Shown here one piece after another: positions 13,695 to 32,518 of a DNA stretch of 64,000 nt. The position numbers were made by a program, and so were the translations under genes. The stretch comes from an uncultured Enterobacteriaceae bacterium (GTDB taxonomy: Bacteria; Pseudomonadota; Gammaproteobacteria; Eutrophobiales; Eutrophobiaceae), in assembly GCA_964479045.1 (NCBI GenBank), contig CAYZJI010000003.1, forward strand, positions 95,483 to 159,482, in the 5' to 3' direction. Numbering within the stretch: position 1 is the first letter of the stretch; each line of letters starts with the position of its first letter. The notes beneath the pieces are model-generated. The model was given only the letters and a program-made list of their open reading frames with translations. It was not told the origin of the DNA and did not search any database.

Positions 13695-15203
13695 TCAGTG
13701 CGTTACAGGCGCCCGGGTATTTTGCATGGCGGTGGCTTCTTCGATGGCATAATCCGCCGACAGCAGGGTGAAACGCAGATGGATATCACCTATCTCGATG
13801 ATATCGCCTTCATGCAGGATGTGACGGGCGACTTTCTTGTTGTTGACGTAGATTCCGTTCAATGAGTCCAGATCAATCAGCGTAAACACATCTCCCTTGT
13901 CCCGGCTGATTTCCGCGTGCCGCCGGGATACGGAACTGTCCGGCAATGTCATTTCATTGTCCTTCCCGCGACCGATGCGCCAACTGGTGCGTGTAATGGG
14001 ATAACGTTTCTTGGTTTCATCCTGTATGACCAGATAGGCATAGGGTTTGTATTCCGGTAATCCGCGAGTTTGTGGCGGAGCCTTTTTCTCCTGCCTGTAG
14101 AAGGTGAACAGGAAGGCAATGAGGATAATTACCAGAACAACGATCAGCGCAGCAGGTATCCCGTACCATATCCACACATTGAATGATCTTGCAGGTGTTT
14201 CCCGATTGATAATCTGAACTGGCGCGGCGACAGTGGCTGTTGCCGTACTGATTTCCTTGCCGACAGGTGCAGGCGGCGCAGTGATGGCCGGCGATTTTGC
14301 TGCTTCCGGCAATGGGACATTAACAGTATAACTGTCTGCGGCAGTGGTCAAAGTCAATGTAATATCATTTGCACCGGGTACTGTGATGGCAGGAACCTCG
14401 ATACTGAAGCGGCCACCACTGTCGATATTGTTATAAATACGTGTCGCGGCATCTTCAGACAGGCTGAAATTATTGCCGGTATCAATATAAACCGCTCCGG
14501 TTTCTTCACTCAGGCGCCGGATGGTTTGCAGGGCTACAGATTGGCTGACAGAACGCGGATAGCCCAGTCCAATGATGGTAATGCCTGATTGTCTGGCTGC
14601 GCGCACTACGTCGTCATGAAAATAGGCACGGTCCTCAGCCAGACCGTCTGAAAACAGGATGATCGTTTTACGATCAGCTTCATATGCACGAAGGGTCTCA
14701 ATGGCTGAGAGCACACTCCGGTAAAGTTCAGTTGTCTTTCCGGTGGCATGCAACTGTGTTGCAGCCTGGTTGATTACATCAACCGTTGAACCTAGTGGAG
14801 CATCAAGGCGCAGTGTTTTATCAAAACTGGCCAGTCCTGCATGGTGGTGCGGTTTGAGCGCACTCAGGAGCATAGCAATGTGTTTTTTCTGCTGTTCAAT
14901 CACCGGTTCACGGGCCGGATCACTGGTGTCCACCAGTAGCAGGAGTGCACTGGTGGCATCTTTCCATGGATAGGCCTCCTTACTGCTGACGGGGAGTTCC
15001 TGTCCGTTTACTTGTGCCTTGATATTAACGATTGGATCAGAAGTAACGGTGTAATACACACAGTCAAGTCTGGCTGGCGCACCGGCCGGGCACTTGAGTT
15101 GCAGGGTCTCCGGGGATAATGCTGCAACAGCCTCCTGCTGCAGAACCAGACACAGGACTATCGATAACAGTCTCAAGCAGGCTTGTGTCCGGTTTTGTAT
15201 CAT
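13695..15203 (-). CDS. Membrane protein with a periplasmic von Willebrand factor A domain, one TM helix and a cytoplasmic FHA domain
   Basis: N-terminal signal peptide. vWA-like region (LLLVDTSD..., ILFSDGLAED). TM helix VWIWYGIPAALIVVLVIILIAFLF. C-terminal FHA signature (WRIGRGKDNEMTLPDSSVSRRHAEI...NGIYVNNKKV). Confidence 0.7.
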   Translation of the reverse strand: MIQNRTQACLRLLSIVLCLVLQQEAVAALSPETLQLKCPAGAPARLDCVYYTVTSDPIVNIKAQVNGQELPVSSKEAYPWKDATSALLLLVDTSDPAREPVIEQQKKHIAMLLSALKPHHHAGLASFDKTLRLDAPLGSTVDVINQAATQLHATGKTTELYRSVLSAIETLRAYEADRKTIILFSDGLAEDRAYFHDDVVRAARQSGITIIGLGYPRSVSQSVALQTIRRLSEETGAVYIDTGNNFSLSEDAATRIYNNIDSGGRFSIEVPAITVPGANDITLTLTTAADSYTVNVPLPEAAKSPAITAPPAPVGKEISTATATVAAPVQIINRETPARSFNVWIWYGIPAALIVVLVIILIAFLFTFYRQEKKAPPQTRGLPEYKPYAYLVIQDETKKRYPITRTSWRIGRGKDNEMTLPDSSVSRRHAEISRDKGDVFTLIDLDSLNGIYVNNKKVARHILHEGDIIEIGDIHLRFTLLSADYAIEEATAMQNTRAPVTH

Positions 15204-15205
15204 AT

Positions 15206-15724
15206 TTACTTGTCCGGGAACATTGGATCCGGCAGATCGTAAAATTGTATGTTCACTGTTTTCTGGCCTGTCCGTGTGGTATCTCGCACATCATCGATCA
15301 TATTATCGTGGTCTTCAAGCTCACCCAGTTGCGGAATTCCCTTGTCCAGTTTGGATTTGGCATTGATTACGCGTTCATGCAGTTCATCTGAATATTCAAG
15401 CCGGAATGCGCGCGGAGGTTCCGGTGATGCGAGGTTGTCGATTTCCTTGAGCCAGAGATAAACAGCACCATCGGCGCCAGTGGCCTTGTTGGGTTGTTCC
15501 ACATAGGAGGCCACCATCTGGAAGCGCTGGGGCAGGCCAGCACTGGTGGGCCAGCCCAGCAGTGGCGGGAAGGAAAAATAGGTCACGATATAAAATATCG
15601 AAGTCACCATGATGGCACCGGCTTTGATCTTCCAGGACCAGTTGGAATAAAGATTTATGCTCAACAGCAAGACCGCAATCAACACATAGGCGGCGACCAG
15701 ACCCAGTATACCCAGACTAAACAT
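15206..15724 (-). CDS. Small integral membrane protein (2-3 TM), unknown family
   Basis: Hydrophobic N-terminal half and a charged soluble C-terminal half. Only 3-bp gap to the vWA/FHA gene. Confidence 0.5.
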   Translation of the reverse strand: MFSLGILGLVAAYVLIAVLLLSINLYSNWSWKIKAGAIMVTSIFYIVTYFSFPPLLGWPTSAGLPQRFQMVASYVEQPNKATGADGAVYLWLKEIDNLASPEPPRAFRLEYSDELHERVINAKSKLDKGIPQLGELEDHDNMIDDVRDTTRTGQKTVNIQFYDLPDPMFPDK

Positions 15725-15767
15725 TATTGGTTCCTCATTAATTCTGTTTTTTATATTCTGATTTTAA

Positions 15768-16361
15768 TTATCCGATAATCACCAGCTTTTTGGGCAGGAA
15801 ATTGATGTTGGAAACCTGCCCGTCCCGGTTGATAGTGAACCGCAGTACAGTTTGTTCGTCACCTTTCTTGTTGAGAGTGATAGTGCCATAGTAGACCACT
15901 TCAAGCCGTGGATTGACCTTGTCGAGACGGACCGTGACATCGACAGGCTTGCCTGTTTCCGTTCCATAATAATGGATGTTGACGACATATTCGCCCTTGA
16001 CTACACCGCGAATGGTGACGACTTCCTGGTTCAGCGGGTTTTCGATCGCTTCACCGTTAATGGTGATCTTGTCATTCACCATGCCGCGGTCATCCCGGTC
16101 AAGATGCAGCAAGCCCGCCTGGGTATTCCGGAACCAGACGATTTGTCCATCCGGATCTTCCACCCACGTATCAACATCATCCGGATTGAAATCCGGCCAG
16201 GTGACCGTGAGAATGTATTCCGCCTTGGGATCAATGATTCCGGTTTTGGCTTCGGGATTCATGAACATGATTGCCGCCAGAAACAGGAACGTAAAACCCA
16301 GTAATGCGTTGAACAACAGATCCGTGAACGGATCAAACTGTGTACGATTTCTGATGGACAT
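15768..16361 (-). CDS. ExbD/TolR/MotB-like bitopic protein with an enlarged periplasmic domain
   Basis: Single N-terminal TM with an Asp-containing helix, DPFTDLLFNALLGFTFLF (compare ExbD TPFIDVMLVLLIIF). About 150-aa periplasmic part. 4-bp gap to the MotA-like gene. Confidence 0.45.
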   Translation of the reverse strand: MSIRNRTQFDPFTDLLFNALLGFTFLFLAAIMFMNPEAKTGIIDPKAEYILTVTWPDFNPDDVDTWVEDPDGQIVWFRNTQAGLLHLDRDDRGMVNDKITINGEAIENPLNQEVVTIRGVVKGEYVVNIHYYGTETGKPVDVTVRLDKVNPRLEVVYYGTITLNKKGDEQTVLRFTINRDGQVSNINFLPKKLVIIG

Positions 16362-16364
16362 GAG

Positions 16365-17138
16365 CTAGTTCAACTTGGGCAGGATATAGACCTGCGTCAG
16401 ATGTTTGGTGATTTCTATCAGCTCATCCACAGTACGATCCAGCATGTGGTACTGGCTGGTGGTCAATATACTGAATATCAATCCGGCGAGTGTGGTATAG
16501 AGGGCAGTGCCCATACCATTGCCCATGTTGCGCAAAATACTTTGCATGGTGGTGACATCGAAATCCGTGATATTGGCCACTGAGCCCAGCATCAGGATAA
16601 AACCGATGATGGTGCCCAGCAGACCTAGTTTCAACATCAGATCAGCGGAATACCAGCCGAATTCATGCGGACCTTTCAGTTTGGATTGATAGACTTCGAT
16701 CAATTCTGTAATCGGGTGACTTTCATCGGTTTCAGCGTTCTTGTTTTTGCCTTTTTTCAGCAAGTCATGGATGAAATCTGTCACGACACAATCCGGTAAA
16801 ACCTTGTCCCCGTTCAGATGTACCTGCTCACCCACCATATGCAGTGTGAGATCAGGGTTGGAGCGAATCAGGACCTCTACATTCTTGGAATTCATCAATT
16901 GGGTGGAAAGATAATATATCCTTCTTGCACAATGAATGAGAACTATAACGAACAACAGGGTAATCACATAGCACAGATAACTCTTGTCGGTGGTATATAC
17001 CAGGATCAGCAGATTCTCATACCAGGTGATGAATGTAATCATGACAAACAGGCCCATGATAATGAGCCAGATCAGAAGCAGATGATACGGACCTGCAGCT
17101 ATGGTTTTGTTATTTTTTACAAATGTACTGTTGTTCAT
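16365..17138 (-). CDS. MotA/TolQ/ExbB-family proton-channel protein (4 TM, MotA-like topology)
   Basis: Family signature LGLLGTIIGF in TM3 and a conserved Thr-containing helix ALYTTLAGLIFSIL in TM4. Large cytoplasmic loop between TM2 and TM3. Confidence 0.65.
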   Translation of the reverse strand: MNNSTFVKNNKTIAAGPYHLLLIWLIIMGLFVMITFITWYENLLILVYTTDKSYLCYVITLLFVIVLIHCARRIYYLSTQLMNSKNVEVLIRSNPDLTLHMVGEQVHLNGDKVLPDCVVTDFIHDLLKKGKNKNAETDESHPITELIEVYQSKLKGPHEFGWYSADLMLKLGLLGTIIGFILMLGSVANITDFDVTTMQSILRNMGNGMGTALYTTLAGLIFSILTTSQYHMLDRTVDELIEITKHLTQVYILPKLN

Positions 17139-17144
17139 AAGTAG

Positions 17145-17624
17145 TTATTTTTCCGTTTCAAGCCAGCCAGCGGCGGCAAAATCGACAATTTTTCTGACCA
17201 GTTTGTTCATGTTATGCATAAGTTTGTTTAATTCCGGTTTGTTACCTTGTTCCGGCCAGAGTGGCGCGGAAATAATAAAGCTGTCGCCAGTTTGCCTGAC
17301 AGTTATCCGCCCCGGACAAGCATTAATCAGTTCCGGTTCAAGTTCAAGCATTTCCTTGGCAAAGGTCAGACTGCAATAGGTGATCACTTCGTAATCCGGA
17401 AAATTTTCCGTGCCCCGGCTGCGGATGGTCTGGCCGATGTGCAGATGGTCCACAATCCGGAGGTTCTGTTCAGTCAGGGCAAAATCAATGTCTTCGAGAA
17501 TATCCGCTAGGGGTTTGTCCGTGGCTTTTTCATAAACCGGCTGTTCACCGTTGGTATATGCAACTGCGCACCACAACAAACCTGTAAATAGAACTAACCC
17601 TCGCAGGGCAGGCTGGAAGTTCAT
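17145..17624 (-). CDS. Secreted DUF302-like protein
   Basis: Signal peptide and a 159-aa soluble domain. The DUF302 assignment is from memory of that family; confirm by profile search. Confidence 0.45.
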   Translation of the reverse strand: MNFQPALRGLVLFTGLLWCAVAYTNGEQPVYEKATDKPLADILEDIDFALTEQNLRIVDHLHIGQTIRSRGTENFPDYEVITYCSLTFAKEMLELEPELINACPGRITVRQTGDSFIISAPLWPEQGNKPELNKLMHNMNKLVRKIVDFAAAGWLETEK

Positions 17625-17654
17625 GGTTCACTGACTGAGTGGCGGGAGAAATCT

Positions 17655-18245
17655 CTACTCCCGGATGATGACCTTGGTGCCGATGGCCACATACTCCCTG
17701 AGTTCATTGATTTGCTGATTGGTCAGGGCAATGCATCCATTGGTCCAGTTGATGTCCGGGTGTATGTCGAGTTTTTCCTCTGTTTCTTCACCCAGACCAT
17801 GTATACCAATGTAGCCTCCAAGGGGCGTGTCTTGGGGAGGTTTTTGTTTGGACTTGAAGGCCTGGGCAATTTGCTTGAATTCCGATGCTGAGATGATGTT
17901 GTTTTTATAGCCATACCATGCATCCAGCAGGTTGGGATAGTCCAGCTGCATGAAGTAATGAAACTGGCTGTTGTCCTTGAAGTCGATGATTTTATAGACA
18001 CCGACAGGAGTTTTCTTGTCACCCAGTTGCCGTTTCGTACCATCACCACCCTTGCCGGTGGCAATACGGTACTGTTTGATCACATGCTCACCCTTGAGAA
18101 CAGCGAGCTCCTGTTTTGATTTGAAAATGATGATGTCGTAACCATCATCCAGTGCGTAACTCATATTGCAGAGCAATATGAGAATCAGGCCAGTGCAGAC
18201 CTGAAAATAATTAATGGTAGCTGTCCGGGAACCGGCATTATTCAT
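17655..18245 (-). CDS. L,D-transpeptidase (YkuD family)
   Basis: N-terminal membrane anchor. Catalytic region GIHGLG...NWTNGCIALTN (His/Cys motif of YkuD). Confidence 0.7.
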   Translation of the reverse strand: MNNAGSRTATINYFQVCTGLILILLCNMSYALDDGYDIIIFKSKQELAVLKGEHVIKQYRIATGKGGDGTKRQLGDKKTPVGVYKIIDFKDNSQFHYFMQLDYPNLLDAWYGYKNNIISASEFKQIAQAFKSKQKPPQDTPLGGYIGIHGLGEETEEKLDIHPDINWTNGCIALTNQQINELREYVAIGTKVIIRE

Positions 18246-18354: not shown

Positions 18355-18392
18355 GGGTAAAAAAATAAAGGGCCATATGGCCCTTTATTCTG
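18355..18392 (-). terminator. Rho-independent terminator downstream of pqqA
   Basis: Minus-strand hairpin AAAGGGCC-ATAT-GGCCCTTT followed by ATTTTTTT. Confidence 0.6.
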
Positions 18393-18414: not shown

Positions 18415-18489
18415 TTACTTGTTGTTGATGTACATGGTGACTTCGAAGCCGAAACGGATGTCGCTATACTCAGGTGTAGTCCACTTCAT
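18415..18489 (-). CDS. pqqA: PQQ precursor peptide PqqA (24 aa: MKWTTPEYSDIRFGFEVTMYINNK)
   Basis: Minus-strand ORF not in the six-frame track because it is so short. It has the PqqA signature W-x-x-P and the E-x-x-x-Y cross-link pair inside FGFEVTMY. RBS GAGGAG lies 8 nt upstream. It has its own terminator. Confidence 0.85.
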   Translation of the reverse strand: MKWTTPEYSDIRFGFEVTMYINNK

Positions 18490-18558: not shown

Positions 18559-18574
18559 TGCAGAATCCGTGCCA
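18559..18574 (-). promoter_or_regulatory. Putative sigma-54 (-24/-12) promoter upstream of pqqA
   Basis: Minus-strand sequence TGGCAC-GGATT-CTGCA, with GG and GC spaced exactly as in the consensus TGGCAC-N5-TTGCA. It lies about 70 nt upstream of the pqqA ATG. Confidence 0.5.
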
Positions 18575-31255: not shown

Positions 31256-32518
31256 ATGAATATTCTGATCATTGATGATTCCAGGGATTTCCGCGCACTG
31301 GTGAGGTTGTATCTGTCCAAGCAGTTGAAGGACGCAAAGCTGGTGGAATATGACCTGGAAAAACTGGGAAAACCGGGCCCTGAATTCAGATGGTCTGATT
31401 ATTCCCTGTTACTTCTCGATTATAACCTCGGTGGTGGTCAGGACGGTTTTACCTGGCTGAAAGAATTTTCTTCACGTCCCGGTTTTCCACCAACCATCAT
31501 TCTCACGGCAGAGGGCGATGAATACATTGCAGTCAAAGCCATCAAGCTTGGTGCAGCGGATTATCTCAACAAGGTAGACGTCTCACCCAAACGGCTGGCG
31601 GAGGTCATCACCAGCGCTATCGAATTTACCGCTGAGAAAAAACAGGAACAGGCACAGGAAACTGCACGCGCTGAAGAACTGGTTGAAGAACTGCACAGGA
31701 AATCCACTAATACTGCCAAACGTGGGAATATTGACACCCTGTACAAATTCGTAAGGGTGATCGGACAGGGCGCATCATCCAAAGTCTATCTTGCTGAACG
31801 TCAGAGTGATCATCTTTCAATGGTGCTGAAGATACTGGAGATTAACAGCGCGACTACCGAGATTGCAGTTAAACGGTTTATTCGCGAAGCAGAACTGATT
31901 GCGGGACTGAACAGTCCCTTTGTGGTGAAGATCTATGATCATGGCATGACTGAAAACTACGGTTTCATCGCCATGGAATTTTTTTCACGTGGTGATCTGA
32001 AACAGCGCATGGAACTCCGCATCACTCCGGATGTTGCCATCAACTACATGACACACATTGCCTATGCACTGGATGCCATACATCGTATCGGGATTGTTCA
32101 TCGTGATCTGAAGCCGGCAAATATCATGTTTCGCGGTGATGACAGTCTGGCCCTTGCCGATTTTGGTATTTCCAAAAAACTGCAAACTTCCTCTGATCTC
32201 ACTACTCTTGGTCAGATTCTGGGTACCCCGCATTATATGAGTCCGGAGCAGGGCGAGGGCAAGAATATTGATCAACGTTCGGATATATACAGTGCCGGAG
32301 TTTTACTCTATGAACTGCTCACACGTGAGAAACCTTATACGGCTTCAACGCCGGCGGCATTGATCTACCAGCATGTCTATGCACCGATTCCGCAACTCGA
32401 AGGCGACTTGGCGAAGTATCAGGTACTGATTAACAAAACTTTGGCCAAACATCCGGATGATCGTTATTCGTCTGCTGCTGAATATATCGAGGCGCTTGAA
32501 TCTATTGCTAATGCGTAG
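31256..32518 (+). CDS. Response-regulator receiver domain fused to a Hanks-type Ser/Thr protein kinase
   Basis: REC: acidic pocket IIDDS, phospho-acceptor Asp in LLLLDYNLG, and Thr/Lys positions (ILTAEGD, AVKAIKLGAADYL). Kinase: HRDLKPANIM, DFGISK, GTPHYMSPE. Confidence 0.8.
   Translation: MNILIIDDSRDFRALVRLYLSKQLKDAKLVEYDLEKLGKPGPEFRWSDYSLLLLDYNLGGGQDGFTWLKEFSSRPGFPPTIILTAEGDEYIAVKAIKLGAADYLNKVDVSPKRLAEVITSAIEFTAEKKQEQAQETARAEELVEELHRKSTNTAKRGNIDTLYKFVRVIGQGASSKVYLAERQSDHLSMVLKILEINSATTEIAVKRFIREAELIAGLNSPFVVKIYDHGMTENYGFIAMEFFSRGDLKQRMELRITPDVAINYMTHIAYALDAIHRIGIVHRDLKPANIMFRGDDSLALADFGISKKLQTSSDLTTLGQILGTPHYMSPEQGEGKNIDQRSDIYSAGVLLYELLTREKPYTASTPAALIYQHVYAPIPQLEGDLAKYQVLINKTLAKHPDDRYSSAAEYIEALESIANA

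Follow-up and report, generated by a model that had tools for sequence, protein, structure and literature searches.

Six genes on the minus strand of a 64,000-nt stretch of DNA from an uncultured Enterobacteriaceae bacterium (contig CAYZJI010000003.1, positions 95,483 to 159,482; below, the window) combine a MotA/ExbB-family membrane protein with an ExbD/MotB-like neighbor and four proteins of other kinds, which raises the question of which of these genes belong together and what they might do. The answer proposed here centers on three consecutive genes, p3-p4-p5, which form a hitherto undescribed, largely phage-borne module of the MotA/ExbB type. The trio probably encodes a motor-like inner-membrane machine of the MotAB/ExbBD type, a reading to which we assign a probability of roughly 0.6 and which is carried by the family assignment of p3, the invariant aspartate in the transmembrane (TM) helix of p4, the universal linkage of the three genes and their presence in phages. 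Literature searches yielded no description of the trio: a recent MotAB/GIT classification does not contain it (PMC12505986), and a comparative study of jumbo phages neither mentions MotA/ExbB nor describes it (PMC7824862).

The six open reading frames (ORFs) were confirmed at 13695-18245 with gaps of 30, 6, 3, 43 and 2 nt, and the YkuD, DUF302, MotA_ExbB and vWA/FHA calls of the initial annotation, made from the letters of the window, were reproduced with Pfam. In transcription order, preceded by a small upstream ORF, the features are:

18415-18489, minus strand: MKWTTPEYSDIRFGFEVTMYINNK, a PqqA-like small ORF read from the sequence, possible upstream transcriptional context of the cluster
17655-18245, minus strand: p1, a single-domain YkuD protein (L,D-transpeptidase fold), YafK/DpaA-like, accessory of the gammaproteobacterial lineage (Pfam E 3e-22)
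17145-17624, minus strand: p2, a secreted DUF302 protein, variable accessory (Pfam E 2.3e-8)
16365-17138, minus strand: p3, the A subunit, a 4-TM protein of the MotA/TolQ/ExbB family, 257 aa (Pfam MotA_ExbB E 3.6e-11)
15768-16361, minus strand: p4, the B-like subunit, with a single TM helix carrying Asp14 and a predicted all-beta periplasmic domain; no curated family
15206-15724, minus strand: p5, the constant third component, a 2-TM hairpin protein with the C-terminal FYDLPDPxFPDK-COOH; no known family
13695-15203, minus strand: p6, with signal peptide, periplasmic vWA domain, TM helix and cytoplasmic FHA domain, variable accessory (Pfam VWA and FHA)

The A subunit p3 and the aspartate-bearing subunit p4

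The p3 protein matched Pfam MotA_ExbB (PF01618) with 43.3 bits at a cut-off of 22.9, the match being confined to TM3-TM4 (residues 170-242), and its viral and rhizobiophage homologs were also above the threshold (37.8 and 26.8 bits). The gammaproteobacterial and viral versions have the motifs GWF..D..G..GT..GFI.ML in TM3 and GM.TALYTTL.GL in TM4 in common; within them, G..GT..GF and TALYTTL.GL were at least 90% conserved among 52 gammaproteobacterial and viral sequences and aligned with the ExbB of the window. Four TM helices were present in every version. In the gammaproteobacterial version, about 65 aa are inserted in the TM2-TM3 cytoplasmic loop, the viral proteins are only 138-176 aa long and nearly devoid of a cytoplasmic domain, and the C-terminus of p3 lies 15 residues past TM4, without the long tail of ZorA.

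The single TM helix of p4 (residues 11-34, with Asp14) is predicted to be oriented N-in, as favored by the basic N-terminus, and is followed by a linker of about 12 aa and a putative all-beta periplasmic domain (residues 47-190). The TM aspartate sits within F.DLLFN.LL.F across diverse family members; it was at least 90% conserved in 43 of them (alignment A1) and invariant in alignments A2, A3 and A5. The family comprises 3,887 homologs in a 90%-clustered database, or 1,860 clusters at 50% identity, and is unannotated. Neither p4 nor p5 had a family in Pfam, NCBIfam, PADLOC or PHROGs, except for a domain-level match of p4 to phrog_1735.

The initial annotation had read p3 and p4 as a MotA/ExbB-like and ExbD/MotB-like pair, and this pairing is upheld by the p3 profile, the conserved TM aspartate and the universal adjacency of the two genes in about 160 loci. 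Profile support, however, came from p3 and did not extend to p4: the window protein had no ExbD/TolR (PF02472) match in Pfam or NCBIfam. Sub-threshold Pfam ExbD matches (E 0.005, TM helix only) appeared in 2 of the 43 diverse p4 family members and a MotB_plug match in 1 of 43, and hhalign placed the p4 helix in register with the aspartate of the window ExbD (single pair, E 0.009, probability 4.5%).

About 24 positions are invariant in the periplasmic part of p4, with many acidic residues among them (W55, D62, D64, HLDRDDLG, N111, E113, R118 and others), and 44% identity is retained even between gammaproteobacterial and viral copies. As modeled, this domain is a TerD/PPC-like all-beta sandwich, neither ExbD/TolR-like nor OmpA-like, the fold being taken from an alignment-based model only (a single-sequence AlphaFold 2, AF2, prediction gave a pLDDT of 43). 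The alpha/beta type of periplasmic domain found in ExbD/TolR was not recognized in p4, the domain did not match the TerD sequence profile (PF02342), and no OmpA match was obtained with Pfam, the low-confidence 12-residue linker leading straight into the beta domain. A Foldseek search of the PDB with the p4 model returned nothing significant, PDB sequences searched with p4 and p5 by phmmer and hmmsearch contained no usable match, and a structure search of BFVD with p4 found only weak, partial matches to uncharacterized phage proteins. At the domain level, p4 was similar to a domain of a solved phage 'virion structural protein' (PDB 11pb_C, E 0.023) and matched positions 420-559 of phrog_1735 (673 residues, unknown function), so that phage particles use the fold as well. 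Two phage records, MH533020.1 (Acinetobacter phage ABPH49) and ON287374.1 (Serratia phage Kashira), matched the p4 domain weakly (E ~1e-4, 28% identity).

The conserved unit and its occurrence in phages

The gene order of the cluster recurred in 80 species-level genomes, the best 80 of at least 569 species hits in the genome scan; all belong to the gammaproteobacterial lineage, and the wider cellular distribution is undersampled in this set. These species representatives are metagenome-assembled genomes of Gammaproteobacteria, apart from Methylohalomonas lacus (locus L067), the only named isolate. Given such recurrence, the order is not a product of chance. Relative to p4, p3 was in place in 81 of 81 gammaproteobacterial loci and p5 in 79 of 79. 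In comparison, the accessory genes were found less regularly (YkuD in 66, DUF302 in 49 and vWA-FHA in 44 of 69 loci). The neighborhood also contains a divergent histidine kinase (57/64) and a sigma54 response regulator (53/62), and is flanked by the housekeeping genes tilS, accA and dnaE. Median identity to the window proteins was 75% for p4, 68% for the sigma54 response regulator, 58% for the histidine kinase, 57% for p5, 56% for YkuD, 50% for p3, 45% for p6 and 40% for both DUF302 and TilS; p4 is the most conserved protein of the neighborhood and is under exceptional constraint. One gammaproteobacterial locus (L049, 2952-4012) has two tandem p5 paralogs behind p4.

Distant relatives of p4 (30-47% identity) were located on contigs with typical large-phage content, including thymidylate synthase, DHFR, dUTPase, PhoH, ThyX, ClpP, DnaK/DnaJ/ClpB and homing endonucleases, along with numerous very small ORFs that lack annotation. 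In IMG/VR, p4 is carried by at least 213 contigs, the longest of 527 kb. Among the predicted viral loci, p3 homologs occupied the position upstream of p4 in 78 of 78 cases and p5 homologs the downstream position in 75 of 85, and the coding regions of the viral trio, as called, overlap by 1-20 nt. YkuD and DUF302 genes were each found in 0 of 67 viral loci, and no vWA/FHA gene was detected near the trio in any of 77 scorable viral or metagenomic copies, even with domain-level hidden Markov models (HMMs). Judged by this distribution, conservation extends to the trio p3-p4-p5 and not to the six genes that the initial annotation had presented as one system; p5, which it had passed over, is the constant third component, and the mainly phage nature of the module had escaped it. 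The YkuD, DUF302 and vWA-FHA genes are lineage-specific additions.

The trio is also present in cultured rhizobiophages, namely RHph_I1_18 (EVB91_122, 123 and 124) and the temperate phage 16-3 (p038, p040 and p042), where all the genes are annotated as hypothetical; about 29 rhizobiophage records carry it in all. The HMM E-values in these cultured phages were 1.3e-12 and 2.3e-7 for p3, 8e-56 and 7e-30 for p4, and 1.3e-5 and 3.4e-6 for p5, and Pfam MotA_ExbB matched EVB91_122 with E 4.6e-6. A tblastn search of GenBank phages with one viral p3 gave no match, the rhizobiophage trio being found via p4 and then by HMMs. It sits in the early/replication regions of lytic rhizobiophages and beside the immX region of temperate 16-3. 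A homologous trio was found on the Azospirillum brasilense chromid NZ_CP059450 (L174, 2472-6019), adjoining an N-acetylmuramoyl-L-alanine amidase-like gene, and every Azospirillum record had two matching places.

Two trio-bearing viral contigs (L147, 3389-5278; L085, 10379-13983) encode full-length DnaK, DnaJ, a ClpB-like ATPase and peptide deformylase; the viral-contig DnaK is 66% identical to bacterial DnaK, and this chaperone/proteostasis content is unusual for phages. A link of the phage trio to vWA or kinase/phosphatase genes, prompted by a vWA gene 2 kb away in RHph_I1_18 and by kinase-like and phosphatase-like genes within 6 kb in 16-3, was considered and dropped, as the other rhizobiophages and the 77 viral loci had no vWA/FHA gene nearby.

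The third component p5 and the neighboring YkuD protein

In p5, a TM hairpin whose loop carries a positive charge (+2) precedes the motifs GWP...LP..F, EP.K.TG..G.IYLW and PRAY.LPYS.ELHE (alignment A4). These are followed by a linker, Gly/Lys-rich in phages, and by I.FY.LP.P..P.K, i.e., the conserved C-terminal FYxLPxPxxPxK. Charge bias would place the C-terminal part in the periplasm. In two sets of gammaproteobacterial orthologs, 113 of 120 and 63 of 74 proteins ended exactly at the conserved Lys, and in the phage and Azospirillum proteins 0-13 residues came after it.

The catalytic motif IHG...NGC is visible in the sequence of p1, which matched PF03734 with 80 bits across the full-length domain. 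Its best NCBIfam match was LdtF_DpaA_YafK, with 40.6 bits against a cut-off of 365, which makes this the closest subfamily and not an equivalog; the best PDB match was 8ikr_A, a YkuD domain protein. YafK/DpaA cleaves the bond between Lpp and peptidoglycan (PMC10653827), and the inner-membrane protein OutB is joined to peptidoglycan by L,D-transpeptidases, a reaction that requires, and needs no more than, a single Lys at the C-terminus (PMC12274547). The terminal Lys in 113 of 120 p5 orthologs, alongside a YkuD gene in 66 of 69 gammaproteobacterial loci, suggests a covalent tether. An Lpp/OutB-style link of the gammaproteobacterial p5 Lys to peptidoglycan via the YafK-like YkuD protein is thus put forward tentatively, at somewhat less than even odds, and the analogy suggests p5 as the most likely substrate of p1. 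The earlier idea that the L,D-transpeptidase hints at peptidoglycan coupling has in this way gained a candidate substrate in the C-terminal Lys of p5.

In two unrelated rhizobiophages, a gene for a trypsin-like, probably periplasmic serine protease lies 1-3 kb from the trio (phage 16-3, L170, 4148-5047; RHph_N3_19, L172, 8198-8890). It is pure speculation that this protease, if it cleaved after Lys, could expose the p5 Lys as a C-terminus.

Proposed mechanism and alternatives

By analogy with known systems, p3 would be the MotA/ExbB-type channel subunit, presumably a pentamer, and p4 would contribute the Asp-bearing 'axle' helix (the proton carrier in MotB/ExbD/TolR), presumably as a dimer. 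The TerD/PPC-like sandwich of p4 would lie directly above the membrane and would probably bind Ca2+, together with a highly conserved ligand. Anchored beside p3/p4 by its TM hairpin, p5 would reach into the periplasm with a small domain, a flexible linker and the FYxLPxPxxPxK motif, and the energy of protons flowing via p3/p4 would be turned into conformational or rotary work, with p5 transmitting it to the cell wall or envelope. In phages, the bare trio presumably alters the envelope or the energization of the infected cell. One lineage of Gammaproteobacteria has kept the trio as a stable chromosomal operon and has added YkuD, DUF302 and, in roughly two thirds of its genomes, vWA-FHA. There, the YafK-like YkuD protein may attach the C-terminal Lys of p5 to the meso-diaminopimelate of peptidoglycan, or detach it, as for Lpp and OutB, and the vWA-TM-FHA protein could tie the machine to Ser/Thr phosphorylation. 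A bolder version, which we consider doubtful on the whole, is that phages ranging from temperate 16-3 to marine jumbo phages bring a minimal proton-driven 5:2 motor of their own, which they insert into the inner membrane of the host at an early stage of infection, with the third subunit hooked to the cell wall (covalently via Lys where YkuD is co-encoded), and that this motor works mechanically on the envelope.

Several points weigh against the motor and against the tether of p5. The similarity of p4 to ExbD is limited to about 15 residues and is not significant by itself, and with only 12 residues the linker of p4 seems unable to span the distance to peptidoglycan. The 5:2 assembly, its stoichiometry and proton coupling are assumed by analogy, and the predicted topology of p5 follows from the positive-inside rule only. 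Moreover, p1 falls far under the DpaA/YafK equivalog cut-off (40.6 vs. 365 bits). In phages and Azospirillum, p5 usually continues for 1-13 residues past the Lys and a YkuD gene does not adjoin, so that the Lys is conserved for a reason other than, or additional to, C-terminal cross-linking.

Rather than a motor, the trio might be a gated proton or ion channel by which phages control or dissipate the host membrane potential, for instance to exclude superinfection, to time lysis or to take over the host; the bacterial copy would then be a domesticated regulator of envelope energization. The minimal size of the viral A subunits (138-176 aa), which would leave no cytoplasmic torque interface, the position of the genes in early/replication regions of lytic rhizobiophages and beside immX of 16-3, and the lack of a recognizable outer-membrane or peptidoglycan-binding partner in phages would all fit such a channel. 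Nevertheless, we regard it as unlikely, since the very strongly conserved periplasmic domain of p4 and the constant p5 with its periplasmic motif do not fit a simple leak but indicate that the trio has a specific ligand or partner in the periplasm, and all family members known to us transduce work.

The second alternative concerns p6, whose layout comprises a signal peptide, a VWA domain (88-240, E 2.7e-10), a TM helix (~335-365) and an FHA domain (408-472, E 8e-22). The initial annotation had taken it as the dedicated output or partner of a MotA-like/ExbD-like motor in a six-gene system, where it would recognize phosphothreonine on the cytoplasmic side and act in the periplasm via vWA. In the window p6 lies 2 nt downstream of p5, and it comes directly after p5 in 43-44 gammaproteobacterial loci. 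Furthermore, GltG, which combines FHA and TM, partners the AglRQS motor (PMC11761067), a transducer role at TolQ-like motors has been predicted for vWA proteins (PMC12204202), and a REC-Hanks kinase is encoded in the window (31256-32518). However, p6 is missing from 25 of 69 orthologous clusters, including that of Methylohalomonas lacus, and from all 77 viral or metagenomic copies, and it evolves much faster than the core, with a median identity of 45% vs. 75% for p4. Its topology is the reverse of that found in GltG and in the published vWA transducers, an SHLS-type motif is absent from its TM helix, and the REC-Hanks kinase is 13 kb away. With a presence in 44 of 69 gammaproteobacterial loci and absence from the viral copies, the vWA-FHA protein is not an obligatory output of the trio, and its role as dedicated partner appears improbable.

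That the chromosomal cluster is an anti-phage defense system of the Zorya kind is very improbable: the best sub-family matches of p3 were indeed ZorA models (NCBIfam 2e-7; PADLOC 2e-6), but these covered only TM3-TM4 with 30 bits against a 500-bit cut-off, p3 is without the long ZorA tail, no ZorB peptidoglycan-binding domain, ZorC/D/E or nuclease genes were present, p4, p5 and p6 had no PADLOC match, the tilS/accA/dnaE context is conserved over many genera and is not a variable island, and phages carry the module. Along with Zorya, Tol-Pal, Ton, Agl/Glt and Bat/MoxR-vWA were considered and rejected as the identity of the cluster. As the initial annotation had maintained, the cluster maps onto none of Tol-Pal, Ton, Agl/Glt or Zorya; for Ton and Tol-Pal, searches of the six proteins with Pfam and NCBIfam gave no TonB_C, TolA C-terminal, TolB or Pal match.

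The preferred reading, a motor-like machine of the MotAB/ExbBD type, would have several implications. The known outputs of 5:2 ion-driven motors are the flagellum, Ton, Tol, gliding/type IX secretion and Zorya, to which the trio would add another. If true, a phage-encoded motor would represent a new functional class within the MotAB/ExbBD-like machines, and their first viral example; its A subunits are, to our knowledge, the smallest seen so far, and it would bring a B subunit with a new, extremely conserved periplasmic domain as well as a new third partner. Since the module is mainly phage-borne, it bears on viral manipulation of the energized host envelope, and p5 may be a second, independent inner-membrane protein covalently tied to peptidoglycan. 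Cultured systems with the module are 16-3/Sinorhizobium meliloti, the RHph and Innesvirus rhizobiophages, Azospirillum brasilense and Methylohalomonas lacus, in all of which its genes carry the annotation hypothetical at present.

Upstream region and other features of the window

Flanked by p1 on one side and by the divergent pair of histidine kinase and sigma54 regulator on the other, the PqqA-like ORF has the E-x3-Y motif of the pyrroloquinoline quinone precursor PqqA and is preceded by a good ribosome-binding site. A sigma54-type -24/-12 element, TGGCAC-N5-CTGC, is situated at 18560-18574, 70 nt upstream of this ORF, and a terminator made of a strong hairpin and a T-run at ~18359-18387 downstream of it. 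The position of the ORF together with the sigma54 element indicates that the two-component pair may control pqqA, with possible read-through into the cluster. A sigma70-like promoter for p1 was not found, and no pqqBCDE genes were seen among the annotated ORFs of the window. A near-identical PqqA-like ORF was present in the same orientation upstream of the cluster (of the YkuD gene) in 39 of 81 gammaproteobacterial loci, with two copies in L040, and a GG-N10-GC element preceded the ORF by 41-123 nt in 14 of 40 cases.

Further along the window, the segment 37671-40769 encodes a sensor kinase of the MoxY type (LapD_MoxY_N), a LuxR-type regulator and a YNCE-like beta-propeller. Together with the PqqA-like ORF and the Methylohalomonas relative, these suggest a methylotrophic gammaproteobacterium as the origin of the window. 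A complete Ton system and a receiver-kinase fusion, both reported earlier for this DNA, were found again as a TonB2-type system (DUF3450, two MotA_ExbB, ExbD, TonB_C and TPR; 32.5-37.8 kb) and a REC-Pkinase fusion (31256-32518).

Comparison with known systems

With MotA-MotB/PomAB, the trio shares a 4-TM A subunit, an aspartate in the helix of the B subunit and the A-then-B gene order. It differs in that p3 has no large cytoplasmic torque domain, p4 has neither a predicted plug helix nor an OmpA-like domain, flagellar genes are not found nearby, and the module occurs in phages. The resemblance to ExbB-ExbD/TolQ-TolR lies in the common Pfam family of the A subunits (PF01618) and in p4, which is small, bitopic, N-in, with a seemingly essential aspartate near the cytoplasmic end of its TM helix, and encoded directly downstream. 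Membrane-anchored and predicted to enter the periplasm via a flexible linker, p5 would conceptually take the place of TonB/TolA. In contrast to ExbB and TolQ, p3 has four TM helices, as in MotA, and the modeled p4 domain is a beta sandwich instead of an alpha/beta fold. Unlike TonB and TolA, p5 has a TM hairpin and a short linear end motif, with no SHLS motif and no TonB_C or TolA_C domain.

As regards Lpp and OutB, the similarity consists of a p5 with a predicted periplasm-exposed end in Lys and a co-encoded YkuD-family gene, whereas the p5 end (..FPDK) shows no similarity to the Lpp box (..YRK/..TKK) and the Lys is not C-terminal in most phage homologs. The Myxococcus AglRQS motor has an FHA-bearing partner, GltG, with N-terminal FHA domains and a periplasmic TonB-C-like domain (PMC11761067), and p6 is comparable as a bitopic protein with a cytoplasmic FHA domain next to a TolQR-like motor. 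However, the domain order of p6 is reversed, the protein is absent in a third of the clusters, no other Glt genes are present, and the NCBIfam GltG model matched it with 42 bits against a cut-off of 650, in the FHA domain only.

Proteins in which an aspartate-bearing trans-pore helix is joined to a vWA domain have been predicted to pair with tolQ-like genes lacking tolR, and TonB-like vWA transducers have been predicted as well (PMC12204202). From both p6 differs by its opposite topology and the lack of a trans-pore helix, and it does not follow their order of N-terminal helix, linker and C-terminal vWA. The aspartate-helix proteins themselves resemble p4 in that the Asp helix of TolR/ExbD is fused to an unrelated periplasmic domain, although this domain is vWA and the gene pairs are heterologous there, whereas p4 combines the helix with a putative TerD/PPC-like sandwich in a single gene that always accompanies p5. 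Overall, the Asp-helix-vWA proteins encoded beside tolQ-like genes are the closest design precedent for p4.

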